Shown: positions 770 to 51,703 of the stretch, piece after piece | Position numbering within the stretch: position 1 is the first letter of the stretch | Layout of the letters: every line of letters starts with the position of its first letter | Source of the DNA: Escherichia phage EC1-UPM | Direction: 5' to 3' (one strand) | DNA length: 64,000 bases | Sequence record: NC_041906.1 | The notes under the pieces: generated by a model | Told to the model about the DNA's origin: nothing | The model's input: the letters and a program-made list of their open reading frames with translations, nothing else | Database searches by the model: none | Made by a program: the position numbers and the translations under genes

Positions 770-801
770 ACGGATACATTTCAACCAATTAAGGAGCATC
801 C

Positions 802-1039: not shown

Positions 1040-1144
1040 TTTGGATGATTTATGCATCCACTAATCATTGAACTTTTATCCTTTTGTTTGGGTGTTCTCA
1101 CCGACGAGTTCACCCGTAAATCACATAAATCTGGAGAGTACAAA

Positions 1145-2759: not shown

Positions 2760-2771
2760 GGAGTAAGCAAA

Positions 2772-4539: not shown

Positions 4540-4554
4540 AGCTGCTCCGCAGCT
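4540..4554 (+). promoter_or_regulatory. Hairpin promoter candidate, copy 4 (upstream of RNAP II genes)
   Basis: AGCTGC-TCC-GCAGCT followed by TTTGG, as in copy 3; 34 nt upstream of ORF 4588. Confidence 0.4.
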
Positions 4555-4587
4555 TTTGGTTATTAATCACATTTAGGAGAATAAGCG

Positions 4588-5406
4588 ATGTACTCATCTA
4601 TTGAACATCAGAAGCAACTCGAAAAACTATTCAATAAAAATCAGCTCTTGTCTCGCATGAGGAAGGAATTCGAGGACTCCGAAGAAATTGACTTTAAGGC
4701 ATTCGCTGCCTATTTGGAAATTGATTATAAGCTGCTCATTGATGCAATGGTGCAGATTGCCCTACATAAACGTGCTGACATTCAGACTATGATTGGCTCC
4801 CTCATGAGCCACTCAGATGATGCTCAGTACATCGCTGACTGTCTGTATAAGATGGCAGAGAATGACTGCTTCAACTATGACCCTACCATCGACAAGTTCG
4901 GTGTTATCTATGAGATTAGTGAAGATGTTCAAATGGAACTGGAAGCATTCCAATACCCATTGCCTATCGTAAGTGCTCCTAAGCCTGTTAAGTGTAACCG
5001 TGATACTGGCTACTACGAGAGCAGAGGAAGCATCATCCTCAAGAAGAACCATCATGAGATGGATGTCTGTCTTGACCACATCAACCGTATGAACAATCAA
5101 CGTCTCAGCATTAACTGGGACGTTGCTAACTATGTAAAAGACTCACGTCCTAACATGGATAAACCCAAAGAAGGTGAGACCCGTCAGGACTATGAGAAAC
5201 GTGTTAAAGCCTTTGAGAAGTACAGTCGTACTGCTAAGGAAGTAATGGAGTTAGTAACTAAAGAAGGTAATAACTTCTCACTGGCTCACAAATACGACAA
5301 ACGTGGGCGTACATATGCCTGTGGCTACCACATTCAATATCAGGGAACCAGCTACAACAAAGCTGTTGTAGAATTTGCTGATAAAGAATTAGTAAACGAA
5401 GATTAA
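4588..5406 (+). CDS. phage RNA polymerase II small subunit (N4 gp15-like)
   Basis: 272 aa ORF immediately upstream of the catalytic T7-like RNAP subunit; position matches N4 gp15/gp16 pair. Confidence 0.65.
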   Translation: MYSSIEHQKQLEKLFNKNQLLSRMRKEFEDSEEIDFKAFAAYLEIDYKLLIDAMVQIALHKRADIQTMIGSLMSHSDDAQYIADCLYKMAENDCFNYDPTIDKFGVIYEISEDVQMELEAFQYPLPIVSAPKPVKCNRDTGYYESRGSIILKKNHHEMDVCLDHINRMNNQRLSINWDVANYVKDSRPNMDKPKEGETRQDYEKRVKAFEKYSRTAKEVMELVTKEGNNFSLAHKYDKRGRTYACGYHIQYQGTSYNKAVVEFADKELVNED

Positions 5407-35684: not shown

Positions 35685-38600
35685 TTAGTTAGTAAGGTTG
35701 AGCCAAGGGTTCAGGTTATGGGCACGTAAGCCTTGACCGAAACCGAAGGAGTAACCGAGGTTGCCTTGTGCAGCAATACTAAAGATGTTGTCCTGAATAG
35801 GTAAACCAACGTTACCAAACATGGTAGGGGTTGGAGCCAACATAGCCATAGCTGCATGAACCGGGTTATTACGAATCATGGACACTGCAACTTTTGCAGA
35901 ACGAATCTTAAAGTTGTAGAACCACATCAGACCAACACTTTCCATATACCCACGGAAGCGACCTGGTAAACGATCATAGTTAATGAACTCTTCCGTTACA
36001 CGTCCTAGTGCTTCTTCACGGGTCTTACCTTTACGCTGGGTCAGTTCATCATAGATGATTGCTTTAGCAATGAAGTCAGAGTACTCAACCGTCTTCTGGA
36101 TACCCTGGAAGAGAGCAGTATCCTTAGTGATAAGTGCATAACGACCAGCATTACGTACAGACTTAGGCAACTTATCAGCCAGCTTATCCATGTATTCGTG
36201 AAGTTTACCTTCAGTAATCAGGATATCATCACGACCAATACCAGCATCTGCAATTGAAGAGAACTCACCAGCTTCCAGTAGAGGCCAGATACTCAAACGC
36301 TTGTGACTATCCGTGATGGACTGAATCTCAGCCTTCAGCTTACGAATCTGGTTCGGGTTAGTAGCTGCACGTAATTCTGCTTCTGCATCTACCTGACGCA
36401 GGCGAGATTTCAGGTACTGGTTAATCTCAGCAGTCTTCTGTGGAATGCTCTTAGCAATGTTCTTAACAGGTACACCACGAGCAACCATCTGGTAAAGGTT
36501 AGCCAGGAAGTTAACAGCAGGTACGACTACTGACTTAACTACAATCAGGGTCTTAGCTTCTTTAACTAAGTTCTGAACCAGGTTCTCACCACCCATTACA
36601 TACTTATAGGCACGGTTACCGAATACACCCAGCATAGCTTTCTTGAAGGTATCCAGTGTTTCTGGTGACCAACGAGAATTACCAGACCAGGCATCACCAA
36701 CAGAAGCTGCACGATACCCTAAAGCATCATTAAGCATGTCACGACGTACCCACAATTCACCAGGACCAAACAGACTTTCTGCTTTCCGACGGGTTTCACT
36801 GTTCATCAGTTTAAGAGCATCGGCAGTTACTGGGTCCAGTTTAGAATCAAAAAGGTTCACGTACTGGAACTTATTAGAGGCAGACATCTTAAGGTCATTC
36901 TCATACATGCTATGCAGGTTCTCAATCAGCATATCGTTGAAACGCTGAGCCTTAGCTTCTTCCACCTGACGCCCACGCCATACACCGATTGCACGAGCAA
37001 GATGGTTATCACCTTCAATGTGCTTCAGCATGTTGGGGTCAATGGATTGCTCGTAAGCAACCACATTACCATTGGCATCATATACAGGCAGCAGTGGTTC
37101 ATTACCACGTTCACCACGAGCCAGTGCTTTAGTAATACGGTCTACAGAAGGCTTGTCAGTGATACGACCTGCTACCATGGTTCCCATCGTAAAGCCTGTT
37201 CCGAGGTCTGCACCGCCAGCAGTATTGCGAACGTTCTGCAGGATACCCTGAGAGAATGGAGCCTGTGCCTGTACTGGTGCGAAGTAGTAACTGCGTGCTG
37301 AACCACGGTTAGCAGAACTACCCTGATAAGTACCAAGACGTACATAGGACTTCTCAATCAAATCAGCAAACTGACTATCTTCAGCAACAATCAGGTTAAC
37401 ACCTTGTTTGTTCTCACTAGGGATATACCCTTTGTACTGGTTCAAGGTTGCACGGCTATCAGACTTAGCTTTAGCCATTTCATCTTTACGCTGACCAACC
37501 AGGTAAGAAGTAGCAAAGTCCATGCCTTCAATTTCTGTCTGAGCCAGTGAAGATAACATCTCACGGTCAGTCTTATTCATTGCTTCCAGTGCATACAGGG
37601 TAATCAGTTTATCCAGCTGAGCTACATCTACGATAGAACTGGTAGTCTTACGTTCACCCAGCAAACGAGAAATTGCTGTAGCATTACGCAGCAGGTTATT
37701 ACCAACTGTACCGTTAATCATGTATTGAGCCAGTTGCTTAGATTTACGGCTAATCAGAGGCCAGTTACGTCCGGCTTGCTTCTGCAAATCTGCTTCAAGT
37801 TTATTAACCTCACGGTCAACAATCTTCTGGTCAGTCAGTAAGTCACGGATTTCATCCAGAGGCATAGTGTCGCGTAGAACAGCTAAGTCAGTTTTACCCA
37901 TACCGGTATGCATTGCTTTCCACTCATCATTAGTCAGTTTACGGCTGAATTTGGATGCAATAGTGGTAGGTAAATGTTCACGGAATTGCTGACGGTCTGC
38001 TTGTACCTGTGCACGAACTGCCTTAATCAAATCGTATACAGAAGCATTGCTCTTAGTACGACCAATTATGTCATTAACCAGGTCATGGAATGGTTGCCAT
38101 ACTTTACCCTGGTTCATTGCAGCCATAACACCTTCAGCTACGATTGCACCATTCTTCTCTGTAGCAATAGCAGCTACCAATTGTGCAGCATGAGCAGCAC
38201 CTTTAACCAACGGGTTCTTGGTATTAGCTGCAACTTCACGAGCACCTCCCAGAGCACGGGTAGACAGTACATCAATAGAATCCACCAGATACTGGTTAGC
38301 ACGGTCAATAGCATTGCCAGTAGGAGTAGCAACTGAATCATAGAAAGATTGTGCATTAAGGCTGGTCTGCATGATGGTCTGAGCCAGTGCATCCATACCT
38401 TCCTGTACGTTAGAGGCTTTAGTATCGCCTGCTACACGGGCATTCAGACTAGCCATTGCAGCAGTACCAATGTTAGTCAGCATTGCATCAACAGTATTGC
38501 CTGATTTCTTATCTGCTTTCATAACAGGAATGTCAGCCAGTACCTTACGTACCTCTTCACTTACCATAGCCAGACCAACAAAGGTAGGTAATAAGGAAGA

Positions 38601-41600
38601 GCGACCTTGAGCATCAAACTCAATGTTGTTAGCACCCATAATGGTATCGAACTTCTGCTGTGCATAATAACGGTCAGCAGGGTTAGTACTATCTGGGTCA
38701 GCCATGAATGCTTCGACGGTCAGGTTCTTAGTAACGTGTGTATAGTATTCCTGTGCACGAGCCATGGCAGCAGGATTAATAGCAGCCTCGGTAGCGAGTG
38801 CAGCAACAATGTTAGTGAAGAGACGTTGTTCCTGCATGTTCATGGTGAAGCCATGAGCCTGAACATCACGAGTTACTTTGGTTGCATTCACTACTGCATC
38901 AGAGAACTTACCTTTACGAATTACTTGCTGTACTGGTTCCGAACCAATGTAGTCAGTAATCAGTTTATCAAAGGTTTTCCCTAACTCTTCCAGACGAGTA
39001 TTGTTACCGTATGCTTTGTTATGGAACAGAGTAGTGTCTTTAGCTACAGCAGCAGTAGGAGCTTGTCCACGCATTACTACAGCAGAGTTAAACAGTAAAC
39101 CTGAGAACATATCATCTGCATTAGCAGGAGCTTTCTTACGACCAAATACCAGACGTTTGATTGCCTCATATACAGCCTGAACCATAGCCTTAAGTGCAGT
39201 GGTTTTCTTCTGCTTACTAATCAATTCTCGGTTGGTTAAACCCCAGGCCATGTACTCGTTCAATGCAGCAGCTTTAGCCATTGCTGGTTCAATGAAGCCA
39301 TTAGACAAGTGACCATTAATGGTATTAAGTGCATCAGCATATGCTTCACGTACTGCCGGAGATTCATCCTTAACATCCAGAGTACGGAACTGGTTCATCA
39401 GGTCTTCAATGTTCTGGACTGCTTCATTAGGAGTACCCTCGTAGTGAGCCAGTACAGATTCAAAAGTAGAAGCATGTACCAATTCATGAACCAGAGTCTC
39501 TAAGGAAGGGGTAACTAAGTAGATGGTTTTATCTTCAAAGTTAGTCCAGCCATATGCATTACCAGCTTCAGCAGCTTCAATATCTTCCGGTGCTGGGCGA
39601 GTAATATTCTTCTCAATGGCGTAGGCATCCAGTTGAGCAGGTGTACCGTAAACAACTTTATAGTCTTTAGCAGCAAGGGATTTCTGTATTTCTTTCAATA
39701 CTGCTTGCTGTTCAGGAGACATCTCTTTAGCCAGTTTAGTAATGGCAGTATTAGACAGTAGACGTACACCAGATTTCAGTACACGACCAACCATCTCCAT
39801 AGCAGGTACTTCAACCACTGGCACTTCCTTCACTGGTTCTACCTTCGTTGGTTCCGCTTTAGTAGCACGTACTGCTTCACGACGCTTGTTTAGTTCAGCA
39901 TCAAACAGTTCGTTCAGCTTAGCTACTTGCTGGTCTACAGTAAGACCTTCCAAAGAAATTTTACCGTTGTTCACATAAGGAGCGCCTACAGCAGCCATCT
40001 GGTCAACAGTGACCTGTACCTGGTCCATTACCTTGTGACGAATATCTACACCCAAAGCAATGTTACGCAGATTACGCTCAATCAATGCAATACCAGAATC
40101 TCTAATCATAGAAATTTTATAATCTCTATCACCATCTACTCTGGCAATATGAGCACGTTGCTCAAAGTCTAAAGCAGACTTCGCAATAGCATCTATTGCT
40201 GCATCGGATAACTTATTTAAATCAACATTCTTAGCAAACTTAGAGAAAGACTCATATACATTCTTGATAGGGTTACCCTGCCAGGAAATATATACAGCCT
40301 CATTAGCTTTACGGCTTGCATCAGTAATGTCATTGATACCAATGTTCATACCATCAAAGATTTTCAGGGTATTCTTCGGAGCACCTTTCATAGTAGAAAG
40401 GGTCTGCATCATCATGCCATCACCAGTACCGATGGTCATAAATGGAATACCTGCTACACCTGCCTGCGAAGGAGCATAGATGCTCATTGGCACACGCATA
40501 CGGTCATCTAAGTTGGTAGCCAGTACCTGGTTAGCAACATCAGTGTTTTCACTGCCAGCAATGTAGAAAGTCTGTGAGCCAGTCTTAATCATTGGAGCCA
40601 GAGGAGCTAAGCTATTCTGAATTTCATTCAGTTCTTTCTGTGTTAAGAAATCACCCTTCTTCCATGTTGGGTCTTTTTCTTTTTCTGCCAGCTTAGCCTG
40701 TACTGCTTGTTGGAACATATCCTGCAATACCAGAGATTGAATCTGAGTAGCCTTCTGCAAATTCTCAGTAGAGTGCATCAACCCCTCACCAACAGTGAAC
40801 CGGATACCTTGTCTCATTGGCTCAACAAAGAAGTGCAGCATATTCTCTTGTAAGTTCTTCAGAGAATCCCCGGATACGGTAAACCCCTGGGGATTTAACT
40901 CACCAGTCAGAACACCATCTACTTCCTTAATAAATAACCTACCTTTGCGTTTGGCTGGAATTTTGCCAGTCAATGCTTCCATAGAAGTAAGGAAGGTATC
41001 CAGCATAGCCTGAGCATCAGCCTCAGACGCAGCCTCCTTACCAAACATCGCCATAGCCGGAGAAATGCTAGGGTCAGCAGCACGTGCTTTCAGAACATCG
41101 CTTAGGCGTTCATAAATGGAATCAGTAATTGCACTTACCATTTTGCCAGCAATACCACGAGCACCAGAACCATAGATGGTAATGGTCAGTGGGTTTTTGG
41201 CGATACCACGTTTCAGGTCCAGAGTACCATCTTCATTCAAGTTAAAATCTTTGATGAACAAATCCATTAACTTCTGGAGATGGTCTATCTGGTTTATAAC
41301 AGAAATATCCTTACTATAAGCATTGCGTAATTCATTTAGATAGAATTGCAGACTATTAGTAGATGCTTCATACAGGTCAACATCGTCTTCCTGAGTATGA
41401 TGCTCATTCATAGTCTTACCAGCTTTACCAAAGAACAAACCACCTTTAGCAGTATTCTTAATCCAGTTTGAAGTGAACTTACCTCCAGTCATTAATACCA
41501 TTGCGTTGATTGGACCGTTGGTTACACCATCAGCTTCAACGTACAAAGGAGTATTAAAGTTGGCACGGTCATCACTGTTCAGGTAACGGGCATATTCCAT

Positions 41601-44600
41601 AAGAGCCATGAGAGCTACAAAGGATTTATCATTACCAAGAGATGTTCTCAGGATATCCACTGCATCAGTTGGTAAGTATCCAGACTTATCAAACTCAACC
41701 ATCATATCTACAGCAGGCTTCAGCTTACCTTCCAGAGCTTTGGTAAGTTCTTCTGACATAGTTTCACGGGTCATTTTATGAACTTTGATACCCAATGCCT
41801 GAGCCAGTCCAAGCTGGAAGCCTGAAAAATCTTCGTTGTTCTGGTTCGATAAATCCAGGGTAGCTTTGGTAGGTAAGATAGCCTCACGAACCAGCTTAGC
41901 TGATTGGGGGGTATATTTACCTAACATCTGCATACGACCAACACGGGTCATATTGTAAGCATAGTGGATAGGTACAGAAGAAATGTCTTTACTCTGTGCT
42001 CTTACCTGTTCAATAACAGAGAACAATTGGTTATAAGAGTCTTCTACTGAACGGTTCTTACCTTCCAGCGATTTAGCGTGGTTCTCGTTAAGTAATTCTT
42101 TATTCAGAGTACCAGCACCCATCAGTTCGAGGATACGGTCTTTACCTAATGCCTCATAGAACTGAACCATTGGGGTATGTACAAAGAACTCTGTATCCTG
42201 TTCTGCTTTAAGAGCAGCTTTCTGTTCTGGAGTATTACGAACAGCAGGGTTACGTAACTGTGTATGAGCCACGGAAGGAATATCATCACCCAGATACAAT
42301 TTCTCTGCTGGTTCTAAGAGTACAGCCTCCTCGATAGCAGTAGGATAATTATTAATTGCATCATTATCTTCTAACTTATCAATGGTATACAGACCAATCG
42401 TCTTATTGGATTCTGGGTCAATCTCAGACACATCCAGCATAGACTCTTTAACTTCACCCATCTCAATGAAAGAAGACAGAATCTCTGTAGCCATTGCCAC
42501 TGGGATACCCTTGGTATAACCAAGTGGTGCATCGGCATTACGGTTAAGCCCCCAGTAAGACTCAATCTTTTGAGCCAGTGAGTTAGTAGCTTCAACCAGG
42601 GTCTGAGCATTCTCGAAGTCAGCCAGAATACCTTCTGGTAACAAAGACTCATTTACACCAGTAATAGCAGCTACGTCTTTCATGTCTTTAATGGCAGCAT
42701 TCTGTGTAGCAGTAAGTCGCCATTGCAGACCAGCAAGTACAGCAGTCTCTAACAACTGGTCATTGAACTTAAAGGTATCACCATCTTTTTCTACGATGTT
42801 AAGTAACTTACCACCCACCCAACGGTTAGCCTCAGTCCCTTCTGCAAAACGTTTACCAACGTTCTTGTTAGCAAGGAACTTAGCCAGACGGTCAGACAGG
42901 GTAGTCTTCAGAGTTTCACCGAAATCAAATAAGTCCTGATAACGCTTAATCACATCACTTGTGAGAGCGTTATTTTCTTTTTGAGTGAATGCTTCAAAGC
43001 GAGCAACGGAAGACAATGCTTTCTTAACATCAGTCAAAGGAGACTCGGAACCAATGGTACGAGACTTAGGTTCTTCTGGTAGAGAAAATGCTTTAAGGAA
43101 CTGGTTCGGTGTCTTGTCATTGTTATAGACAGGGAACACTGTTTCCATTTGAGATAGAGGTTTACCACCAACGGTATAGTCTGCTTTCAGTTGAGCCAGA
43201 GATACTTCTTCCTTCTCAACGTTATTAGTGTTACGCCCAGACGTATCTACACCAACCTGAATCAGTGCATTGTTTGCTTCTACAAATGATTGAACAGTAT
43301 TAAATTGTTCAGGAGTTAGTTTCTGATTATCAAATAGTTGTAAAGATACAAATGGTTGTTCACTGCCTTTGTAGAAGGTAGAGCGAATAGCACCAGTATC
43401 TAGTGACATATCTCGATAACCATCGTGTCCAAATACATCAGACAGACTGATGTGGTCGCCATTGGAACCAACAACAGTACCATCAGCAAATAACCATGGA
43501 CTCTCCCTACGATCACCATACTTATTAAGAGTATCTTGAGAAATGGTATTCTCTTTTACATAAGCATCCTGTTCAGATTCAGTAGGTTGCTCGATGGTAT
43601 CCTCATTAGTGAGGGTAGCATCCTGTTTTTCAGACTGATTCTCAGGTTCTTTTACAGGCTGTGGTTTAGACTCTTTAGTAGTGGGTTCTGTTTTAACAGC
43701 TTCACTAACAGAGGGTTTAGTCTGTACAGTAGGGGTAACTGGTTCCTGTTTTGTAACAGGAGTTTCATCAACCTGATTCACTGGTTCACTAGTCTGTTGG
43801 GATTGAGCAGCATCAAGATTGCCCTGACGGAACTCTTTAACTACCTGGGCAGCAGGCTTGTCTAGACGTGAATCCAATGGGGTAACTTTAACATGAGAAA
43901 CATTAAGCTCCGGGTAAGCCGTAGCAAGTGCGTTAGCAATATCAGCTACGGTCTTGGCTTCCAGTCCTACTTGCTGGGCAAACTTAACCGACTTGGTATC
44001 ATACGGATTGACACCGAGGCCAGTACGACTACGTACCCATTCACGCGAAGGAGTAAGAGCCTGATAATGGACAGACTTATTCTTATCCGCATTCCCAGAA
44101 ATCAGATGCTCATTCAACGCTCCGACCTTATTCTGCATGTGCTGGGCGAACTTCATAAAGTCGTCGAGATAAGCGGAAGCCAAATCGAAGTTACCAGAGT
44201 TGTACGCAGAACGAATGCGTTTAGCATGTTGCAACGCAGAGTACTGGCCTTCATTAGAACGAGACTCGTCGGTTTTAATTTGTTTACTAACAATGTCCTG
44301 AGGACGTAAGCCTAGTTCTTCTGCTTTAGCGTCAAATTCTCGTGCTCCTTGCAATAGAGCAGCAGCAGATTGCAGGGCAGCACGCTGACGATTCCCTAGC
44401 GTAATCTTACCTTCACTTGCATGTTTCAGAACCATGTTCACTGAGTCTGCATCCAGTACTTCTGGAGACATATCAGCAGCCATAGCAATGTTGTTTGCCT
44501 GGGCTTGGTTAGCTTCTTCAGTAGCCTTCAGTTTACCTGCTTCAGCCTGTTCCTGAATCATGGAATGAATAGCACGGAATGCACGGAGTACCTTCGGTGT

Positions 44601-46523
44601 ATTCTGAACGTTAGCCATCAGGCCAGAGAACTGGTCTACGATTGCAGCAGCAGGAGAACCTTGTTCCAGATTAGCCAGAGCACCTGGGTCACGGTTAATG
44701 AAGCTATCCATAGACATGATGTTGTCATACATCTGGATTGCAGCTTCCATTTGAACGTTAGGGTCTTCAGCAGTATTAACCAGGTCAGCCATTTTCTGAA
44801 TAGCTTCAACACGGTTAGTGGAACCAGAAACAGCTTCACGGATTGCAGGACTAGCTTGTTCTAGTTCTACTGGGTCAAACTTCATTGCCTGAGTTAAGTC
44901 AGCAGCATACTGAGTAGCAGCAGCTTTCTCTTCAGGAGAAATATCCATTGCATCTACTGCTTCCTGAACAGTTGCTTGTGCTTGTTCTGCCTGAGCAGTA
45001 GCTTCTTGTGCAGCAGCGTTAACTGTAGCGTCTGATACGGGAGATGCTTGTTCATTACGCTTAGCTACTTCTTCCCCACGTTGAACCAGAATGTTAGTAA
45101 TAGGAGAAGCTACTTTTGCTAGTGCCTTACCAGCCAGAGAAGCACCAGCCAGGGTAGTACGTACAGCAGGACCAACGGCAGCACCAGCAGCCTTAACAGT
45201 TGCACCAGGAGCTTGAGCAACTCCAGCAGAACCAAAGCCATACAACGCACCAAGACCAGTTTGTTCACCCACACCTTTAAGCAATTCACGATTAGCATCT
45301 ACATTACCTTGAATTGCTTTGTTCTGTGCAAACTGACTTGTACCAGACTGGATACCTTCTTCCACAGTTTCACGGAGCATGTTAGAACCAGCACCGGCCA
45401 GTGAACCTACCTTGAGTGGGTTAAGTTCAAACTTAGATACCAGTGGACCAGTAATAGCAGCAACCGGAGCAGTTAAGCCAGCAGCAGTGATACCTGTTTC
45501 AGATGCAGTCTGACGTCGTGCCTCTTCAGGAGTTAAGCCGTCTTTAATATGCTGTTGGTATACTGGGGATTTAGCAGCCAGTTCACTGAATGGCATTTCC
45601 ATAATTTCATTGGCAGTCTGTTGGTATGCACCACCAGCTTCCATACCACCAATTGCTATAGCAGGTGCAGCAACACGACCAGTAGCTAATGCAGTACGTG
45701 CAGGACGTGAACCTAATTCAGCAGCTAAGGTAATACCCTTAACAGCTTTATCTCCACCTACCATTACTTTACCTAGTGCAGATACACCACGAATTAATGG
45801 GCCACCGGTAAAGAGAGAACCAACACCCTCAGCCAGACCATCTGTAGCAGCCATGCCATTAGATAAGGTGTTAGCAACAGAATCATAAGCATCACGACCG
45901 ATACGAGACAGGGAAGCAACGAGTTCACTTTCTCCTTTATCAATATCCTGCTTATAGAGTTTCTCATTTTCCTGTGCAGATATTACGTTCTGGTTCTGTA
46001 CTACATTACGACGAGCATTCAATGCATCAGACTGTAGGTTGTGTACACCTTTATTCAACCAGTCAAGACCGGAAGCAATGGATGCCCCGGCATTATCATT
46101 GACCAAGCCTGTGCCAAGAGCAGCAATGCCCCCGAGGGTATTAGCAACACCAAGACCAACACCAGAAAGGGTATCACCAAGTGCTTCACCATATGTACGA
46201 CTCTTAGTTAAATCACGACGAACAGCATTAGCTGCATTGACACGAGCATTGAGAATATCCATTCCTTGCTCATTGCCATATTTATTTATGATTTCGAGAG
46301 GAGAGGCATTAGTAAAATCTGCCTGAATAGAACCTGGGTCAAATGCACCAGCACCTAAGTTACCAGCACGACCTGCCTGTAATTGGTAAGCGTTCTGTGG
46401 AGTTAATTGGAAAGGGTTTTGCCCTTGTTCAGCTTGTTTCCGAGAGGTTGCAGTAGAGACATCGACTTGCTTAGCAGTAGTGATGCTGTCTGCGAAACCT
46501 GCCAGACGGTCAAATGTTGACAT
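35685..46523 (-). CDS. giant virion-encapsidated RNA polymerase (vRNAP, N4 gp50-like)
   Basis: ~3600 aa ORF, hallmark of N4-like phages; ATG at 46523 with AGGA RBS (track start 46541 is TTG). Confidence 0.9.
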   Translation of the reverse strand: MSTFDRLAGFADSITTAKQVDVSTATSRKQAEQGQNPFQLTPQNAYQLQAGRAGNLGAGAFDPGSIQADFTNASPLEIINKYGNEQGMDILNARVNAANAVRRDLTKSRTYGEALGDTLSGVGLGVANTLGGIAALGTGLVNDNAGASIASGLDWLNKGVHNLQSDALNARRNVVQNQNVISAQENEKLYKQDIDKGESELVASLSRIGRDAYDSVANTLSNGMAATDGLAEGVGSLFTGGPLIRGVSALGKVMVGGDKAVKGITLAAELGSRPARTALATGRVAAPAIAIGGMEAGGAYQQTANEIMEMPFSELAAKSPVYQQHIKDGLTPEEARRQTASETGITAAGLTAPVAAITGPLVSKFELNPLKVGSLAGAGSNMLRETVEEGIQSGTSQFAQNKAIQGNVDANRELLKGVGEQTGLGALYGFGSAGVAQAPGATVKAAGAAVGPAVRTTLAGASLAGKALAKVASPITNILVQRGEEVAKRNEQASPVSDATVNAAAQEATAQAEQAQATVQEAVDAMDISPEEKAAATQYAADLTQAMKFDPVELEQASPAIREAVSGSTNRVEAIQKMADLVNTAEDPNVQMEAAIQMYDNIMSMDSFINRDPGALANLEQGSPAAAIVDQFSGLMANVQNTPKVLRAFRAIHSMIQEQAEAGKLKATEEANQAQANNIAMAADMSPEVLDADSVNMVLKHASEGKITLGNRQRAALQSAAALLQGAREFDAKAEELGLRPQDIVSKQIKTDESRSNEGQYSALQHAKRIRSAYNSGNFDLASAYLDDFMKFAQHMQNKVGALNEHLISGNADKNKSVHYQALTPSREWVRSRTGLGVNPYDTKSVKFAQQVGLEAKTVADIANALATAYPELNVSHVKVTPLDSRLDKPAAQVVKEFRQGNLDAAQSQQTSEPVNQVDETPVTKQEPVTPTVQTKPSVSEAVKTEPTTKESKPQPVKEPENQSEKQDATLTNEDTIEQPTESEQDAYVKENTISQDTLNKYGDRRESPWLFADGTVVGSNGDHISLSDVFGHDGYRDMSLDTGAIRSTFYKGSEQPFVSLQLFDNQKLTPEQFNTVQSFVEANNALIQVGVDTSGRNTNNVEKEEVSLAQLKADYTVGGKPLSQMETVFPVYNNDKTPNQFLKAFSLPEEPKSRTIGSESPLTDVKKALSSVARFEAFTQKENNALTSDVIKRYQDLFDFGETLKTTLSDRLAKFLANKNVGKRFAEGTEANRWVGGKLLNIVEKDGDTFKFNDQLLETAVLAGLQWRLTATQNAAIKDMKDVAAITGVNESLLPEGILADFENAQTLVEATNSLAQKIESYWGLNRNADAPLGYTKGIPVAMATEILSSFIEMGEVKESMLDVSEIDPESNKTIGLYTIDKLEDNDAINNYPTAIEEAVLLEPAEKLYLGDDIPSVAHTQLRNPAVRNTPEQKAALKAEQDTEFFVHTPMVQFYEALGKDRILELMGAGTLNKELLNENHAKSLEGKNRSVEDSYNQLFSVIEQVRAQSKDISSVPIHYAYNMTRVGRMQMLGKYTPQSAKLVREAILPTKATLDLSNQNNEDFSGFQLGLAQALGIKVHKMTRETMSEELTKALEGKLKPAVDMMVEFDKSGYLPTDAVDILRTSLGNDKSFVALMALMEYARYLNSDDRANFNTPLYVEADGVTNGPINAMVLMTGGKFTSNWIKNTAKGGLFFGKAGKTMNEHHTQEDDVDLYEASTNSLQFYLNELRNAYSKDISVINQIDHLQKLMDLFIKDFNLNEDGTLDLKRGIAKNPLTITIYGSGARGIAGKMVSAITDSIYERLSDVLKARAADPSISPAMAMFGKEAASEADAQAMLDTFLTSMEALTGKIPAKRKGRLFIKEVDGVLTGELNPQGFTVSGDSLKNLQENMLHFFVEPMRQGIRFTVGEGLMHSTENLQKATQIQSLVLQDMFQQAVQAKLAEKEKDPTWKKGDFLTQKELNEIQNSLAPLAPMIKTGSQTFYIAGSENTDVANQVLATNLDDRMRVPMSIYAPSQAGVAGIPFMTIGTGDGMMMQTLSTMKGAPKNTLKIFDGMNIGINDITDASRKANEAVYISWQGNPIKNVYESFSKFAKNVDLNKLSDAAIDAIAKSALDFEQRAHIARVDGDRDYKISMIRDSGIALIERNLRNIALGVDIRHKVMDQVQVTVDQMAAVGAPYVNNGKISLEGLTVDQQVAKLNELFDAELNKRREAVRATKAEPTKVEPVKEVPVVEVPAMEMVGRVLKSGVRLLSNTAITKLAKEMSPEQQAVLKEIQKSLAAKDYKVVYGTPAQLDAYAIEKNITRPAPEDIEAAEAGNAYGWTNFEDKTIYLVTPSLETLVHELVHASTFESVLAHYEGTPNEAVQNIEDLMNQFRTLDVKDESPAVREAYADALNTINGHLSNGFIEPAMAKAAALNEYMAWGLTNRELISKQKKTTALKAMVQAVYEAIKRLVFGRKKAPANADDMFSGLLFNSAVVMRGQAPTAAVAKDTTLFHNKAYGNNTRLEELGKTFDKLITDYIGSEPVQQVIRKGKFSDAVVNATKVTRDVQAHGFTMNMQEQRLFTNIVAALATEAAINPAAMARAQEYYTHVTKNLTVEAFMADPDSTNPADRYYAQQKFDTIMGANNIEFDAQGRSSLLPTFVGLAMVSEEVRKVLADIPVMKADKKSGNTVDAMLTNIGTAAMASLNARVAGDTKASNVQEGMDALAQTIMQTSLNAQSFYDSVATPTGNAIDRANQYLVDSIDVLSTRALGGAREVAANTKNPLVKGAAHAAQLVAAIATEKNGAIVAEGVMAAMNQGKVWQPFHDLVNDIIGRTKSNASVYDLIKAVRAQVQADRQQFREHLPTTIASKFSRKLTNDEWKAMHTGMGKTDLAVLRDTMPLDEIRDLLTDQKIVDREVNKLEADLQKQAGRNWPLISRKSKQLAQYMINGTVGNNLLRNATAISRLLGERKTTSSIVDVAQLDKLITLYALEAMNKTDREMLSSLAQTEIEGMDFATSYLVGQRKDEMAKAKSDSRATLNQYKGYIPSENKQGVNLIVAEDSQFADLIEKSYVRLGTYQGSSANRGSARSYYFAPVQAQAPFSQGILQNVRNTAGGADLGTGFTMGTMVAGRITDKPSVDRITKALARGERGNEPLLPVYDANGNVVAYEQSIDPNMLKHIEGDNHLARAIGVWRGRQVEEAKAQRFNDMLIENLHSMYENDLKMSASNKFQYVNLFDSKLDPVTADALKLMNSETRRKAESLFGPGELWVRRDMLNDALGYRAASVGDAWSGNSRWSPETLDTFKKAMLGVFGNRAYKYVMGGENLVQNLVKEAKTLIVVKSVVVPAVNFLANLYQMVARGVPVKNIAKSIPQKTAEINQYLKSRLRQVDAEAELRAATNPNQIRKLKAEIQSITDSHKRLSIWPLLEAGEFSSIADAGIGRDDILITEGKLHEYMDKLADKLPKSVRNAGRYALITKDTALFQGIQKTVEYSDFIAKAIIYDELTQRKGKTREEALGRVTEEFINYDRLPGRFRGYMESVGLMWFYNFKIRSAKVAVSMIRNNPVHAAMAMLAPTPTMFGNVGLPIQDNIFSIAAQGNLGYSFGFGQGLRAHNLNPWLNLTN

Positions 46524-46590
46524 AGCATGATTCCTGTTCAAACTTATATCGTATAAGAAGATTCACTGTACAGTAAGTGAATGTAAGAGA

Positions 46591-46610
46591 AAAGCCCCGG
46601 ATGGGGCTTT
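46591..46610 (-). terminator. intrinsic terminator-like hairpin after gp51-like gene
   Basis: AAAGCCCC-GGAT-GGGGCTTT between stop at 46627 and vRNAP start. Confidence 0.4.
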
Positions 46611-46626: not shown

Positions 46627-48573
46627 TTATCGAGGTTGCATATAGGGAGGTAAACCCTCTGCTAATTTTCGATAACGTTTAGCTCGTTCTTCATCTTCAC
46701 GACTGCGTTCACGCTCTACGGAAGCATTAGAACGGAAGTTCTGTGGAACCAGGTTCCCTTGATTAGCTACCACAGTATTAACAGCAGCATCCAGTGCAGC
46801 CCGTGCTCTTACTAACTCAGCTTCACGAGCAGGAATAGTAGCAGCAAGTCCGCTTTGACCAGCAGCCACACGACGACGAGTATCAGCAAGTAAGGTTTCT
46901 GCTTGATCTACCTGGTTCTGGGCATTAGCAATATTACCCTGTACCTGAGTAAGAACATTATCACGAGCAGTAGCTTCAATGCCTTCCCCACGTCGCACTG
47001 AACGTGCTAGTTCTCTGGCAACGGTATCGTCAATACGAATACCATTACCACCTTCCGGTGATTTCCCTGGTGTAAGCGCATCCCAGGTACGACCAAGAAT
47101 ACCCTCTGGTACGTTTGTAATAGATTGCTTAAGAATCTCAGCAGCTACAGCAGGAGACTGCCCCGATTCCTGCATAACTTTATTCAGTCGAGCTACCATC
47201 CATCCTTTCTCAGAACCTTTAAAAGCATCCTTGAGAAGACGGTCTGCTACTTCACCAATGGTGGAGTTGTCACGTAATGCACGAGCATAGTTAGCAGTAA
47301 TGGTTCCAGTATTATCTTCAGACTGGCGTGCAGCAACTGTATTGCCTGCCATGTTTGAAACTACTTGCTGGGTCTGTAGCTGGTCAAGAGGTGCACCTAC
47401 TTCTGCCTGTGCAATTAACTGACGTGCTTCACTCCACGGCATATCCTTATAACCACCTACACCCAAGTCAGGCAATGCAGCCCAAGTCTTGGAAAGGTTA
47501 CCACTCTTACGGTCATTAAAGATTGCTTCAGCTATTTTGTCCTGTACTTCAGGAGTCATTTGCTGATTACGCCAGTCTGAACCAAGTACCTTAGGTGCAT
47601 AGTCTTCCAGGGTAGCTTTATTAATCTGGAATGCTCCTACAGGGGAATGACCTTGTGACGGGTTATTAATCATAGTTTGCTGATGATTAGTAACCTCACC
47701 CAGTGTCATTTCAGTAATAGGCTTATCAGTAGCAGCAAAGGTATAGGTTGCATCATAAGGGGAACCAGAACGAGTACCAGCAGTTCCAGGAGCAGAGCCA
47801 GAAGGGGATGTAGCATAAGTACCAGGGAATCTCTCGTTCACACCCCGCATGATTGCAGAACGTACACCTGGGGAAGCATTCTGCATAGCAGACTCTGCCA
47901 GTGTAAGAGCATCCATAGGAGTGGAAGCACTACGGAAGATGTCAGTCAATATACCGGATGCAGCTTGTGAATCAGCATCATTACGTTGACGTACATTAAG
48001 GTCAAAGCGACTACTTGCCTGATTAATAGCAGCACCACCTTGCCCCTGAAGACGGCTCAACATATCCAGTTGTTGGTCAGCAGGAAGTGCAGATAATGCA
48101 TCACGGGTTTGACCTAATGCAGTATTAATACGGTTCTGGTCACCTGACTGATAAGCCTCAGACAGCAAACGAATAGCCGGTGAAGCATTATCTAGGGCAG
48201 AGTCAGTATTCTGTAAACGACCGAAACGATAAGCATTGTAGTCATTGGTTCCTTGCTGACCTTGCTGAGTCAGAAGAGTACCTGCTCGCTCATCCAGATT
48301 CTGAAGAGTACGCTGACTTACTAATGAAGGGTCAACCCCCTGGAACAATGCACCTGATGCTAAAGCATTACGATACTCAGTAGGGTCTTGGTATCGCATA
48401 GCATTCATCATGACGGCATTGCCAGCCTCCTGCTTGGCAGCGTTCTGGAAATTACCCAGTGCATCACTTAAGCCGGAGGTAGCGTTACCAATCATGTTTC
48501 CAAATGTGCGAATGCTGTCACCTACTCCAGAGAAGTTAGGTGCATCAACATTTCTCCATGTTATCTGGCTCAT
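46627..48573 (-). CDS. internal virion protein (N4 gp51-like) with possible lysozyme-like segment
   Basis: 648 aa, Q/N/G/A-rich; segment EMTLGEV...GAFQINKATLEDY resembles transglycosylase core. Confidence 0.5.
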   Translation of the reverse strand: MSQITWRNVDAPNFSGVGDSIRTFGNMIGNATSGLSDALGNFQNAAKQEAGNAVMMNAMRYQDPTEYRNALASGALFQGVDPSLVSQRTLQNLDERAGTLLTQQGQQGTNDYNAYRFGRLQNTDSALDNASPAIRLLSEAYQSGDQNRINTALGQTRDALSALPADQQLDMLSRLQGQGGAAINQASSRFDLNVRQRNDADSQAASGILTDIFRSASTPMDALTLAESAMQNASPGVRSAIMRGVNERFPGTYATSPSGSAPGTAGTRSGSPYDATYTFAATDKPITEMTLGEVTNHQQTMINNPSQGHSPVGAFQINKATLEDYAPKVLGSDWRNQQMTPEVQDKIAEAIFNDRKSGNLSKTWAALPDLGVGGYKDMPWSEARQLIAQAEVGAPLDQLQTQQVVSNMAGNTVAARQSEDNTGTITANYARALRDNSTIGEVADRLLKDAFKGSEKGWMVARLNKVMQESGQSPAVAAEILKQSITNVPEGILGRTWDALTPGKSPEGGNGIRIDDTVARELARSVRRGEGIEATARDNVLTQVQGNIANAQNQVDQAETLLADTRRRVAAGQSGLAATIPAREAELVRARAALDAAVNTVVANQGNLVPQNFRSNASVERERSREDEERAKRYRKLAEGLPPYMQPR

Positions 48574-48585: not shown

Positions 48586-49035
48586 TTAACGAGTTAGCTT
48601 GTTAGCTGCAATGTAAGCATCAGCTGAAGACTGGTCACGGTTTTCTGCCGTAGCACGACTACGAGCACGGTCTTCAAGTGCAGTGTTATAAGACTTAATC
48701 TGGTTATTCAGGTTAGTGTTAGTAACACTCTTAGCAAAGTTCAGCTGGTCTTTGGCTAACTTATTAGCCTGAAAACCACTATAGATATTTGCTAACGAAC
48801 CAAGAGCACCCAGTCCTAGTTGGAAGGTAGGTATGTTCATACCAAGCTGGTCAGCTGAGCCATTACCCGAACCAAACAGTGAGTTATCTAGGTTTCCATT
48901 TAAAAAATCCATACCAACTACCTGTCCTGGCTGATAATTCATAGCTGGGGTATTAAAGTTCTGATTGTTATTAGACATCCAAGACATAGCAGCTGGCTGT
49001 GGGGTTTGGTTGCCTGTAAAGAATGACAAATCCAT
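48586..49035 (-). CDS. virion protein (N4 gp52-like)
   Basis: ATG at 49035 with AGGAGA RBS (track start 49056 is TTG). Confidence 0.5.
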   Translation of the reverse strand: MDLSFFTGNQTPQPAAMSWMSNNNQNFNTPAMNYQPGQVVGMDFLNGNLDNSLFGSGNGSADQLGMNIPTFQLGLGALGSLANIYSGFQANKLAKDQLNFAKSVTNTNLNNQIKSYNTALEDRARSRATAENRDQSSADAYIAANKLTR

Positions 49036-49048
49036 GGGGATTCTCCTG

Positions 49049-51703
49049 TTAAACAAGGTCAGTATTAAGAGTCATGTCAGAGTAGTTACCTATCATATCT
49101 AGAGACAAGTCAGCTATATCTGAACCAGTCATGAGCGTACGTGATAAGAATGAATCCAGCGACTCTATTGACACGAATTGCATTGGGTCAATTACACCCT
49201 GTCCAGCAGTACCAAACATTTCTTCATACTGCTTATTGATTGCCATCATATCAGTATTGTACTGCTGCATTACTTTCTCTGCTTTCTGAATAGTAGCAGC
49301 CGTAGATGCATTAATATACTGGCTGATACCATTACCCACTGAACTGGTAAGCTGCATGATATTTTGGGCATTCATCATCTCACTCGCCAGAGTAGATAGA
49401 GATGTACCGGTAGACAAAGCAGTACCAACATTCATAGCTACCATTGAAGCGATAGCAGCAATGATAAAGCCCAGCTTGTCCCCGAACAGTGCGGCAGATA
49501 CTTTAGTGATAATAGATACAAGAATCATTCCAGCAATAGCATTTGCTACAGCACCCACTATCACAGCAGCTAATCCAACAAAGCCAAGTGATGCACCAAC
49601 TGCACCATACGCTCCAAGTATACCTGCTCCACCAGCACCAGCTGTAAATACAGAGATAACCACAGCAACTACAACAACCAAAATCTTAAAAGCAGAGGAA
49701 TGATACCATTTCTTCTTAACCTTCTTATATGAGTTCATCACTAAGTAGGAACAGGCAGTAGATAACTGAGTACTTCGAACCAGTGACATGGAACGGTATA
49801 TGTTAGTGTGTAGTGGAATAATGAATCCACTTTCTTCTGCATCACCCATTGCCCCAGCAACATCAATGTGTACTGATTTATTCTTATATACCCTGTTATA
49901 GTGATTTAGACCCAGTACTCTTAGTTTACGGTAAGTGTTATTACCATCCTGCCAAAGTAACTCGTATTCCTGCATAGTGTAAAATGTAGGAGTAACCTCC
50001 AATTCCTTAACTGAACCGGAGTTACGAGAGGTACGCATATTCTTGCGAGTAAGGGTTATATCCCCTGCATACCTGGCTCGAAGCTGACCCTGTTTAGCAC
50101 CAGGCCATGCTTTACCGGAGTGAGTAGTTTCAAATACATAGTTCCAGCCAATAGTCATGTCATACTTGTAATGTTTACTGCTATGTACCCTAAACTCTCG
50201 CTTAGGTATGACAGGGTATTCCGGCAGTGGAGGGGGTGTTCCAACAATATGACCTTCATGCCTGTTCCACCATTCTACATATGTATCAACCGCATCATTG
50301 GCTGCCTGATAACCTGCAATTACTGCTTCCAGAGTAGGGTAGGTTGGGTCAGGCGGAAATGCTTCAGTAGCCATCTGAAAGAAACGGTAGATGTATTCCT
50401 TAGCAGTATCCTCTGGGGTATTAAGAGATACACCGAATGTGCCATAAATGTATTGGATATCGCCTATGTCCTTATTCTTCTTAAGCTCAGTTATTACATT
50501 ATTGAGTTTACCACCAGTAGCTTTATAAAGAGCTTTCTTACAGTGAGGGTAGATTGGGTCATTCTCTACCCATTGTTTATCATTCCTGATCGGAATGAAT
50601 GGGTAGAATCGGTTGTCAGTAGCTTCAGTCTCAAACAGTGAATCCAGTACAACGTTACCAGAGTTCTGTTTATAGATAAGCATCTTAGGTGTACCAACAG
50701 CAGTCATCTCAGTATCAGTACGAGTAGTCTGCGATGAATACTTACGAACCAGTGTCTCTGTGGTTGTAGTAATTGTATCAGTACGAGTAACACCACCACC
50801 TATATCAACTACATTAGTAGTTACAGAAGTACTGGATTGAACCTCACCAAACTTTTTATGAGTCATTACCCTGTCAGATACAACCACAGTTACATCATTA
50901 GGTTTCTCAGTAAATCCTCTACGGTAAACCTTAACGTAGGAGTTCCAGTTATCCACACTTGGTTCAGTGACGGTACTGTCTTCATCCGGTCTACCGTCAG
51001 AGTAAACAGAATGAGTATGTATAGTCTTAGTAAGGTTAGTTGTATTAGCCGTCGTATCACTTGAGACAGTAGTCCATAACAAAGTGGAGGGTAAATCATC
51101 CTCATTATCATAGACAGTAGTTGGTCCCTCTACCGGTGGATTGGTAGATGGGGACTTATAGAATGAGTAATCAGCATAGAGATACAAAGCACCTGGTTCA
51201 AAGTTAGTGGGTGTGAATTTAATAGTAGAACCTCCATCCAGGGAGGTCATAGTAATTTCATTAGTATCTTCATCAATATCTATGTCGAATCGTTCCATGA
51301 TTCGACTTGGAGCATTCTCATAAAGATACTGGTCACACCATTGTTCAAAGTCAGCAAAGCCAATCTCTGCTGCCTGAACATAAACAGACTCTCCAGCAGG
51401 TGGTGTAATTTGACCCTCTATTACAGTAGGGTCAATCTTAGCCAGTACACCTAATGAAGAACCAGCCATACCAACTTCTGAATCATAGTGGTTCTTACTC
51501 CAGCTGGAGAACAGTCGCATACGAATACCAGGTCCATTCATATAACTATCAGAGATAGTGTCTGCCATAGTGAATCCTGTATTGGAAACAATGTTACCAA
51601 TGACTACAGTCTTCATATAGTTAGGACGTTTGTGTATATCCCCTGCCATGTTATAGACAGAGGATGCTACGTATACTTTGGTCTTCCCACTGAATAAACC
51701 CAT
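49049..51703 (-). CDS. large internal virion protein (N4 gp53-like) with Gly/Ala-rich membrane-spanning segment
   Basis: 884 aa; hydrophobic VVVAVVISVFTAGAGGAGILGAYGAVGASLGFVGLAAVIVGAV; TAATATG coupling with upstream gene. Confidence 0.55.
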   Translation of the reverse strand: MGLFSGKTKVYVASSVYNMAGDIHKRPNYMKTVVIGNIVSNTGFTMADTISDSYMNGPGIRMRLFSSWSKNHYDSEVGMAGSSLGVLAKIDPTVIEGQITPPAGESVYVQAAEIGFADFEQWCDQYLYENAPSRIMERFDIDIDEDTNEITMTSLDGGSTIKFTPTNFEPGALYLYADYSFYKSPSTNPPVEGPTTVYDNEDDLPSTLLWTTVSSDTTANTTNLTKTIHTHSVYSDGRPDEDSTVTEPSVDNWNSYVKVYRRGFTEKPNDVTVVVSDRVMTHKKFGEVQSSTSVTTNVVDIGGGVTRTDTITTTTETLVRKYSSQTTRTDTEMTAVGTPKMLIYKQNSGNVVLDSLFETEATDNRFYPFIPIRNDKQWVENDPIYPHCKKALYKATGGKLNNVITELKKNKDIGDIQYIYGTFGVSLNTPEDTAKEYIYRFFQMATEAFPPDPTYPTLEAVIAGYQAANDAVDTYVEWWNRHEGHIVGTPPPLPEYPVIPKREFRVHSSKHYKYDMTIGWNYVFETTHSGKAWPGAKQGQLRARYAGDITLTRKNMRTSRNSGSVKELEVTPTFYTMQEYELLWQDGNNTYRKLRVLGLNHYNRVYKNKSVHIDVAGAMGDAEESGFIIPLHTNIYRSMSLVRSTQLSTACSYLVMNSYKKVKKKWYHSSAFKILVVVVAVVISVFTAGAGGAGILGAYGAVGASLGFVGLAAVIVGAVANAIAGMILVSIITKVSAALFGDKLGFIIAAIASMVAMNVGTALSTGTSLSTLASEMMNAQNIMQLTSSVGNGISQYINASTAATIQKAEKVMQQYNTDMMAINKQYEEMFGTAGQGVIDPMQFVSIESLDSFLSRTLMTGSDIADLSLDMIGNYSDMTLNTDLV

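Follow-up and report, generated by a model that had tools for sequence, protein, structure and literature searches.

A predicted N4 gp50-type virion RNA polymerase gene at the strand switch of Escherichia phage EC1-UPM, with an additional module in its tether

Identity of the giant gene

The longest gene in the window, by which we mean the whole 64,000-nucleotide stretch of DNA that was analyzed, most probably (at about 97%) encodes the orthologue of N4 gp50, the virion RNA polymerase (vRNAP), in a G7C-like coliphage belonging to the genus Gamaleyavirus, family Schitoviridae. Read from its preferred start codon, the gene is placed as follows.

35685..46523, minus strand: vRNAP coding sequence from the preferred ATG, 3612 amino acids (aa), stop codon TAA at 35685-35687

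A DNA search with the gene matched 84 phage records, 57 of which covered at least 80% of its length. The best match was Escherichia phage vB_EcoP-ZQ2 (Gamaleyavirus, Schitoviridae) at 93.8% identity, and most of the matching records listed carry the annotation “virion RNA polymerase.” At the protein level, the product is collinear end to end with the vRNAP of ZQ2 (97% identity), G7C gp50 (89%), and N4 gp50 (68%), and its 3612 residues place it among the single giant, gp50-collinear polypeptides of ~3400-3750 residues. Searches of PDB with phmmer retrieved full-length N4 gp50 (9pnq/9pnr/11gp) at E=0 over residues 1-997 and 1139-3611, as well as mini-vRNAP chains, also at E=0. Four vRNAP-specific Pfam domains scored above their gathering scores (N4_RNAP_helical, 3.9e-99; vRNAP_dom_2, 3.4e-55; vRNAP_dom, 2.7e-51; vRNAP_plug, 1.6e-25), and PHROG 2206, “virion RNA polymerase,” matched with 4097 bits over profile positions 5-3405 of 3406. 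A preliminary description, made from the letters alone, had placed the gene in the N4 gp50 family and would have given this up had no similar proteins been found; similarity to that family is clear in PDB, in Pfam, and, end to end, in PHROGs. Nothing in the window contradicts the vRNAP reading.

Strand switch and neighboring genes

The ORF listing gives a single uninterrupted ORF on the minus strand from 46541 to 35685 (3618 aa if counted from a TTG codon), four times as long as any other ORF in the window; the next largest are 884, 859, and 855 aa. The claim that this ~10.8-kb ORF is the largest by far is therefore borne out. The chance of ~3600 stop-free codons is roughly (61/64)^3600, effectively zero.

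Among ORFs of at least 150 aa, excluding those inside a longer opposite-strand ORF, genes lie on the plus strand up to 32369 and on the minus strand from 35685 onward. The last plus-strand ORF, 35449..35649, finishes 35 nt short of the end of the vRNAP gene, and the sign of the GC skew reverses between 34 and 36 kb, at the junction of plus- and minus-strand genes. The vRNAP gene is the last of a leftward block, which runs into the rightward block at a terminator that the two share. The preliminary description had the gene anchoring the strand switch, and on this point the ORF strands, the terminator, and the skew all agree. The features that flank the gene are as follows.

35655..35678, bidirectional: intrinsic terminator of the vRNAP gene and the last plus-strand gene, -19.1 kcal/mol, z -5.2
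46585..46610, minus strand: intrinsic terminator after the gp51-like gene, with an 8-bp G+C-rich stem, a 4-nt loop, and a T-rich tail
46627..48573, minus strand: gp51-like ejection protein gene, product 46% identical to N4 gp51
48586..49056, minus strand: gp52-like ejection protein gene, product 60% identical to N4 gp52

The G7C record has a terminator annotated on both strands at the place equivalent to the bidirectional element. The hairpin after the gp51-like gene (-13.1 kcal/mol, z -3.6) was missed by a consensus terminator scan, and the PhAPEC5, PhAPEC7, and Jura records have a “terminator” feature where it matches them. The gp51-like and gp52-like genes sit directly upstream of the vRNAP gene, and G7C and N4 have this gp52-gp51-vRNAP arrangement too, which gives the gene the late neighborhood of those phages. 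[quoted passage not shown] A tRNA scan of the window found none.

Start codon and upstream leader

Three elements bear on where translation begins.

46539..46541, minus strand: in-frame TTG, start of the longest ORF, probably unused, followed by variable codons
46532..46535, minus strand: AGGA, a Shine-Dalgarno-like element with an 8-nt spacer to the ATG at 46523
46539..46550, minus strand: GATATAAGTTTG block, putatively a -10-like or regulatory element of gene 50

The preliminary description called the TTG annotated, but the window itself carries no annotation, and the TTG is the purely mechanical start of the longest ORF. Direct reading of the sequence places an in-frame ATG at 46523-46521, and the last base of the AGGA element lies 9 nt upstream of its A. 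As the preliminary description had noted, the TTG has no ribosome-binding site: a purine-rich, Shine-Dalgarno-like run was not found in the 20 nt that precede it (CTTCTTATACGATATAAGT). Across genera, the five codons that separate the TTG from the ATG vary in the amino acids they specify, whereas the nucleotides AGGAA are fixed, being unchanged across eight phages of at least four named genera. Between the window and N4, four of these five codons differ nonsynonymously; past the ATG, by contrast, 12 of 13 residues agree, and codon-level conservation starts exactly at the ATG. This codon is aligned to Met1 of N4 gp50, the PDB-deposited sequences of which begin at the equivalent Met, and it is the annotated start in all seven of the related GenBank records (ZQ2, G7C, Moonfish, Moo19, KP8, JZBo1, and N4); the TTG is annotated as the start in none of these seven. 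Translation most likely begins at ATG 46523 and yields 3612 residues, and the earlier preference for this codon thus gains support from homology.

Translation of the same gene from TTG 46541, which would add six N-terminal residues (LNRNHA), seems improbable to us. The TTG gives the longest ORF, and each of the eight aligned phages, among them N4, has kept it in frame; however, it falls within an invariant 12-nt block that looks less like coding sequence than like a signal in DNA or RNA, and the absent Shine-Dalgarno-like run, the divergent intervening codons, and the start shared by the GenBank and PDB entries all argue for the ATG. That block, GATATAAGTTTG, is invariant in 8/8 aligned phages and occurs as a single copy in the window; since it is unrepeated elsewhere in the window, it cannot be called a general late-promoter consensus. 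A scan for the sigma-70 consensus upstream of the vRNAP gene found nothing.

Domain architecture and conserved residues

Alignment with N4 gp50, which the preliminary description had proposed as the means of finding the central polymerase domain, located that domain at residues ~1129-2220 and delimited the other parts of the protein.

43821..46523, minus strand: N-terminal domain (NTD), residues 1-901, 61% identical to the N4 NTD
43551..43820, minus strand: low-complexity T/E/Q/P-rich tether, residues ~902-991, equivalent of the N4 907-1006 linker
43173..43550, minus strand: extra alpha/beta module, residues ~992-1117 (~125 residues), absent from N4 gp50
[quoted passage not shown]
39060..39791, minus strand: C-terminal domain (CTD) subdomain C1, residues 2245-2488, 64% identical to N4
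35688..39059, minus strand: CTD subdomain C2, large and helical, residues 2489-3612, 71% identical to N4

The limits of the NTD and its membrane insertion have been described for N4, in recent structures of which the 907-1006 linker tethers the membrane to the polymerase (PMC13434306); residues 224-274 of the present protein align to the predicted membrane-spanning helices of N4. The C-terminal domain combines the large helical C2 with a C1 that carries an HExxH motif, here HELVH at residues 2346-2350 (DNA 39474-39488). C1 and its HExxH are known from N4 (PMC13434306, PMC5512222), and the N4 CTD is autoinhibitory (PMC13434306, PMC13492108).

The roles of the catalytic and hairpin-promoter-contact residues were established for mini-vRNAP (PMC4496689). 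The catalytic residues R1530 (T/DxxGR), D1665 (motif A), K1776 and Y1784 (motif B), and D2057 (motif C), which are R424, D559, K670, Y678, and D951 in mini-vRNAP numbering, are identical to those of N4, and so are their flanks. Identity extends to the promoter contacts W1235, K1220, R1225, D2007, and R2010 (W129, K114, R119, D901, and R904 of mini-vRNAP) and to the equivalents of mini-vRNAP K849 and K850; the hairpin-reading residues are accompanied by the plug module detected with Pfam. The sole nonconserved residue among those checked was K267 of mini-vRNAP, presumably a catalytic or hairpin-promoter-contact residue, in place of which both this protein and G7C have N.

Candidate early promoters

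Four candidate vRNAP hairpin promoters were found near the left end of the window.

134..151, plus strand: candidate P1-like promoter, CATGC-TCC-GCATG followed by TTAT, predicted +1 G at 151
755..772, plus strand: weaker candidate promoter, GCTGT-TCC-ACAGC, predicted +1 G at 772
1026..1043, plus strand: candidate P2-like promoter, GCTGC-TCC-GCAGC, predicted +1 G at 1043
4541..4558, plus strand: candidate promoter, GCTGC-TCC-GCAGC, predicted +1 G at 4558

These are the only occurrences in the window of the motif stem5-TCC-stem5-YTNYGG, all on the plus strand and within the first 4.6 kb; the motif occurred 0 times in 200 shuffles. The candidate at 755 is ranked as weaker because its -9 base departs from the N4 consensus. 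The hairpin at 1026..1043 lies just upstream of a gp2-like ORF (1052..1525), and that at 4541..4558 lies upstream of a gp15-like (RNAPII subunit) ORF (4588..5406). They occupy positions that correspond to those of motifs in G7C and N4 (the N4 site at 559 among them), and their stems carry compensatory changes between phages. On its template strand, the N4 site at 559 agrees with what is presumably the P2 oligonucleotide sequence. The literal N4 P2 stem (GAAGCNNNGCTTC) had no significant matches in the window, the hairpins of which have different, compensated stems and were found by their architecture. Cognate early hairpin promoters therefore appear as candidates at the left genome end.

These data also bear on whether the product serves essentially for ejection or as a structural component and has a vestigial polymerase domain, early transcription being left to the host enzyme. 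Two thirds of the protein (NTD plus CTD) is nonpolymerase, and in N4 it has ejectosome and membrane-anchoring roles (PMC13434306). Nevertheless, every catalytic motif and every confirmable hairpin-contact residue is identical to N4, the polymerase domain is among the best-conserved parts of the protein, and the candidate cognate hairpins have been retained through compensatory stem changes, so that we regard a vestigial polymerase as very improbable and an active vRNAP as the better reading. The labels “DNA polymerase” (HK2, PD205, and U1G) and “gram positive anchor domain protein” (ECBP1) in some GenBank relatives deserve almost no credence and are ruled out by the PDB and Pfam matches: no such Pfam family appears at E<=1, the structure-backed homology is to an RNA polymerase with the motif B tyrosine and T/DxxGR present, and in RefSeq, ECBP1 and pSb-1 carry the label virion RNA polymerase.

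Comparison with closest relatives

The vRNAP of ZQ2 (QWY13177.1, Gamaleyavirus) has the same neighbors, ATG start, and linker module as the one described here; its low-complexity tether is 7 residues shorter, and only scattered substitutions are found elsewhere. G7C, the Gamaleyavirus type virus, has the same bidirectional terminator and equivalent hairpin promoters, and its gp50 (AEL79661.1) has the same domain order and a linker module that is 92% identical. However, G7C gp50 has 3748 aa and carries a second tether insertion of ~145 residues that is absent in this phage, and one block at residues 1447-1546 is only ~71% identical to G7C in DNA, compared with ~90% to N4.

The experimentally characterized prototype is N4 gp50 (YP_950528.1; PDB 2PO4, 3C2P, and 9PNQ-9PNW). 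It shares the order NTD, tether, T7-like RNAP, short linker, HExxH-bearing C1, and helical C2, together with the catalytic and promoter-contact residues (K267 excepted), the gp51-gp52-gp50 order, and the hairpin promoter architecture. It differs in having 3500 aa, without the ~125-residue module.

An extra module in the tether

An exhaustive search recovered 22 representative homologues of the tether module at E<=1e-3. They occupy varied positions in proteins of 166-3675 aa, with SLT, ResIII/Sno helicase, MTase, and LPD22/38/39 domains, and their alignment shows family-invariant residues (S1008-P1009, L1011, G1015, D1023-H1024, R1047, and Q1073). This recurrence across positions and architectures of giant phage and mobile-element proteins is that of a polyvalent accessory domain. 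Searches with the module against Pfam (LPD models included), PHROGs, NCBIfam, and PDB sequences gave no meaningful matches, and it belongs to no named LPD or Pfam family. In a homologous-protein index, the module alone had 0 matches and the family profile retrieved one 166-aa protein; the index seems to miss the giant module-bearing proteins that exhaustive searching recovered. One standalone homologue (P0011) has as neighbors DNA polymerase III beta, ParB, and Prok-Ub/E2/JAB genes, a setting that resembles a phage or mobile element.

AlphaFold models of the module had a pLDDT of 50.8 from the single sequence, which is unusable, and 87.7 from a 20-sequence alignment. On this prediction, the module is a confidently folded alpha/beta domain family with no named relatives. 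An intein or homing element was rejected: the predicted fold is alpha/beta and not the all-beta HINT fold, the terminal HN plus nucleophile is missing, and the homologues are ordinary domains in unrelated architectures. The tether looks like an insertion hot spot, with one insertion here, two in G7C, and none in N4, KP8, and Moo19, as judged for the last three from protein lengths.

Discussion

In N4, the vRNAP is packaged in the virion, ejected, and responsible for rifampicin-resistant early transcription (PMC13434306, PMC4496689). We infer encapsidation, ejection, promoter use, and the N terminus of the EC1-UPM enzyme by homology. By that homology, late expression of the leftward transcription block would supply the polymerase, of which a few copies would be packed into the capsid. 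At infection, it would be ejected after the gp51-like and gp52-like proteins, and its NTD would associate with the inner membrane, joined by the long flexible tether to the T7-like single-subunit polymerase domain. At the left end of the genome, host gyrase and SSB would extrude template-strand hairpins with a 5-7-bp stem and a 3-nt loop; the vRNAP would recognize these, with -11G of the GGA loop stacked on W1235, and transcribe the early gp1-, gp2-, and RNAPII-like genes without host polymerase. The large HExxH-bearing CTD would pack on the polymerase and keep it autoinhibited. In this lineage, the enzyme also bears one extra small folded module in the tether between NTD and polymerase.

The vRNAP gene itself is already known and matters little here: it is an ordinary, well-described copy of the gene by which textbooks recognize N4-like phages, and dozens of near-identical genomes have it annotated. 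What is gained is a sound annotation of the window, comprising the ATG at 46523, the extents of the domains, the terminators, the operon of ejection-protein genes, and four candidates for early promoters.

The tether module appears undescribed, although it is only a mildly new detail of the gene. Iyer et al. (2017, PMC5512222) counted N4-like vRNAPs among the polyvalent proteins, which accumulate additional domains, and the vRNAP accessory domains listed there are ART, lysozyme, PBECR, and MPTase, the tether module not being among them. Its homologues lie within giant polyvalent proteins of phages and conjugative elements that carry SLT, helicase, methyltransferase, and LPD domains; the module itself falls outside the Pfam LPD models. 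We speculate, with more doubt than confidence, that the module is an unnamed, independently folding domain of the polyvalent repertoire and could be an early-acting effector that rides in on the injected polymerase, directed, for example, against host defense or against a host nucleic-acid or protein target. With its invariant polar residues and its occurrence in both injected polymerases and polyvalent proteins, it is the one item here that could repay further work. If the proposal is true, the vRNAP of this lineage would be a carrier of cargo domains.

Identity and domain structure of the giant gene

The ORF listing of the window contains a single giant reading frame on the minus strand (35685..46541; 3,618 amino acids counted from its TTG), and all other ORFs encode at most 884 amino acids, in agreement with the preliminary description of one gene that is the largest by far. 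A megablast search of 50,697 phage records matched this gene to 84 of them, and in 57 the match spans 80% or more of its whole length. The top match, to Escherichia phage vB_EcoP-ZQ2 (Gamaleyavirus, Enquatrovirinae, Schitoviridae), extends across the entire gene (100%) at 93.8% identity, and most of the matching records listed annotate it as virion RNA polymerase (vRNAP). The protein is collinear from first to last residue with its counterparts in ZQ2 (97% identity), G7C (gp50, 89%), and N4 (gp50, 68%).

Searches of PDB sequences with phmmer gave matches with an E value of 0 to full-length N4 gp50 (9PNQ, 9PNR, 11GP, and others) and to the mini-vRNAP crystal chains 2PO4, 3C2P, and 3Q0A. The Pfam families N4_RNAP_helical, vRNAP_dom_2, vRNAP_dom, and vRNAP_plug all scored far over their gathering scores, and PHROG 2206 (“virion RNA polymerase”) aligned over positions 5 to 3405 of its 3,406. 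Membership in the N4 gp50 family, proposed from the sequence alone, is thereby borne out, and all family features open to an in silico test are present. Judged by these comparisons, the gene is already known: it has near-identical orthologues among annotated genes, and the prototype of the family, to which it is also orthologous, has a solved structure.

In GenBank, orthologues are labeled “DNA polymerase” in HK2, PD205, and U1G, named “gram positive anchor domain protein” in ECBP1 (JX415535), and called “hypothetical protein” in CU10EC; in Shigella phage pSb-1 the gene is broken into three CDSs. These labels and the split are probably annotation or sequencing artifacts.

As the preliminary description had suggested, alignment with N4 gp50 located the central RNAP domain. 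Domain limits are those of N4 (Bellis et al. 2026; PMC13434306), transferred through the alignment, with residues counted from the ATG at 46523 (3,612 amino acids).

Domains of the vRNAP, with identity to N4
Residues 1-901: NTD, 61%
From residue 902: T/E/Q/P-rich tether
To residue ~2220: RNAP domain, 72%
Residues 2221-2244: short linker, 48%
Residues 2245-2488: CTD-C1, with HELVH at 2346, 64%
Residues 2489-3612: CTD-C2, 71%

The catalytic residues R424, D559, K670, Y678, and D951 (mini-vRNAP numbering) are all identical here, as are their local contexts. A further mini-vRNAP residue, K267, is replaced by N in both this vRNAP and that of G7C. W129, K114, R119, D901, R904, K849, and K850, which read the hairpin promoter (roles reviewed in PMC4496689), are all identical to those of N4.

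A patch within the polymerase domain departs from the rest of the gene in codon-level nucleotide identity.

Residues 1447-1546 (window ~41886-42185), minus strand: mosaic patch

In the window and in ZQ2, the patch is 89 to 92% identical to N4 and 71% to G7C, against a background outside it of ~68% to N4 and ~88% to G7C. This departure suggests a recombination tract between Enquatrovirus-like and Gamaleyavirus genes.

Translation start and upstream block

The frame opens with a TTG at 46541-46539, ahead of which inspection found no Shine-Dalgarno-like sequence; AGGA (46535-46532) precedes the in-frame ATG at 46523 with an 8-nt spacer. This much of the preliminary description stood, including its preference for the ATG. 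Its reference to an annotated TTG did not, as the window is unannotated and the TTG is simply the start of the longest ORF. We aligned the upstream regions of eight phages (the window, ZQ2, G7C, Moonfish, Moo19, KP8, JZBo1, and N4); those with a genus assignment represent Gamaleyavirus, Moovirus, Kaypoctavirus, and Enquatrovirus. In all eight, the ATG is preceded by AGGAA and, farther upstream, by a GATATAAGTTTG block, both of them invariant; protein-like conservation begins at the ATG (MSTFDRLAGFADS here versus MSVFDRLAGFADS in N4); between the TTG and the ATG, four of five codons differ nonsynonymously between the window and N4. The equivalent ATG is the annotated start in all seven related records, and PDB-deposited N4 gp50 sequences begin at the equivalent Met. 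On the homology evidence of this conservation pattern, the annotations, and the deposited N4 sequences, translation very probably starts at ATG 46523.

46539-46550, minus strand: GATATAAGTTTG, 12 nt, invariant in eight phages of four named genera

The block is single copy in the window and contains a −10-like hexamer, TATAAG (46548-46543); a sigma-70 consensus scan for a gene 50 promoter gave no match. If TATAAG acts as a −10 element, transcripts would start at ~46535-46538, directly beyond the TTG. The block may be a late promoter of gene 50 or another regulatory site.

Genomic setting and predicted mode of action

Gene 50 is preceded on its own strand by homologues of N4 gp51 (46% identity) and gp52 (60%), which in N4 form an outer-membrane complex and a periplasmic tunnel, respectively, the route of gp50 release (PMC13434306). 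Hairpins flank the gene on both sides.

46591-46610: hairpin with T-rich tail, between the gp51-like gene and gene 50
35655-35678: hairpin, 10-bp stem, between the vRNAP stop and the last plus-strand ORF

The first matches a sequence carrying a terminator feature in the PhAPEC5, PhAPEC7, and Jura records. The second is scored as a terminator in either orientation, and G7C has terminators annotated on both strands at the equivalent position. A gap of 35 nt separates the vRNAP stop (35685) from the point where the last plus-strand ORF (35449..35649) ends, and GC skew is positive to ~34 kb and negative beyond ~36 kb. From the spacing, the bidirectional hairpin, and the skew flip, it follows that the gene closes the leftward (late) block and that the two blocks converge at its 3′ end, which upholds its placement at a strand switch.

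Nearby, between the gp47-like and gp48-like genes (~32980-34930), are few long ORFs and short ones on mixed strands (e.g., 34143..34481, minus strand, 112 amino acids); the equivalent place is an unannotated gap in N4 (32.1 to 33.6 kb) and holds an HNH endonuclease gene in G7C. No tRNA genes were found across the entire window.

Four sites, all within the first 4.6 kb, fit the pattern 5-bp stem, TCC loop, 5-bp stem, YTNYGG; 200 shuffles yielded none.

Candidate vRNAP hairpin promoters
134-151, plus strand
755-772, plus strand
1026-1043, plus strand
4541-4558, plus strand

Genes like gp1, gp2, and gp15 lie downstream. Equivalent sites occur at 89, 796, 1228, and 5221 in G7C and at 90, 559, and 4548 in N4; the template strand of N4 site 559 agrees with the P2 oligonucleotide sequence of the crystal-structure papers. 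Stem changes are compensatory across phages (e.g., GCTGC/GCAGC here, GACGC/GCGTC in G7C, GAAGC/GCTTC in N4), and the loop and closing G-C (template −11G, −10G, −9C, −8G) are retained at three of the four sites. Template strands fold into 6- to 7-bp stems with a GGA loop under RNA energy parameters, the real hairpins being DNA. The promoter positions imply that the window begins at or near the left genome end.

All functional statements about this vRNAP carry over N4 knowledge by homology (PMC13434306, PMC13492108, PMC4496689). By analogy, a few copies would be packed in the capsid and ejected later than two smaller ejection proteins; the NTD would join the inner membrane, with the tether letting the polymerase and CTD sit in the cytoplasm. 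The CTD would autoinhibit the polymerase, and initiation would occur at DNA hairpins whose extrusion is assisted by gyrase and SSB; the resulting transcription would be rifampicin resistant.

An additional domain in the tether

The PDB alignment is interrupted between residues 997 and 1139, and a four-way alignment showed ~110 to 130 tether residues without an N4 counterpart. G7C has an additional insertion of ~145 residues just upstream (gp50 residues ~955-1110), unrelated to this module, with a weak PHROG match (HTH DNA binding protein, E = 0.0046) as its sole hit. The tether seems to be a favored site for acquiring domains.

By tblastn, the module (residues 990-1140) is confined to 27 phage records, in each of which it lies in a G7C-type vRNAP and shows 92% identity or more, a narrower distribution than that of the gene (57 records covering at least 80%). 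When 1.84 billion representatives were searched exhaustively with phmmer, 22 proteins matched, including a divergent vRNAP (P0012), a standalone 166-amino-acid homologue on a metagenome contig (P0011; L006, 7294-7794), and giant proteins bearing SLT, ResIII/Strawberry-notch helicase, methyltransferase, and LPD22/38/39 domains, among them P0003 (63% identity). The contig is phage-like or mobile-element-like; the neighbors of the standalone gene encode DNA pol III beta, DNA_pol_B_exo2, ParB_N, and Prok_Ub/E2/JAB/ThiF proteins. Across the aligned family, S-P, L, G, D-H, R, and Q positions never vary, and the G+C content of the module is 39.8%, versus 44.2% for the whole gene.

The architectures of these relatives are those that Iyer et al. 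2017 (PMC5512222) describe for “polyvalent proteins,” a class in which that paper already places N4-like vRNAPs as proteins accreting ART, lysozyme, PBECR, and MPTase domains. We found no description of the module in the literature searched; it may act as an injected effector or as a passive “bead.” Our conclusion is that the flexible tether holds an inserted domain that is genuine, mobile, and still without a name, and it is here that the residual novelty of the vRNAP gene lies.
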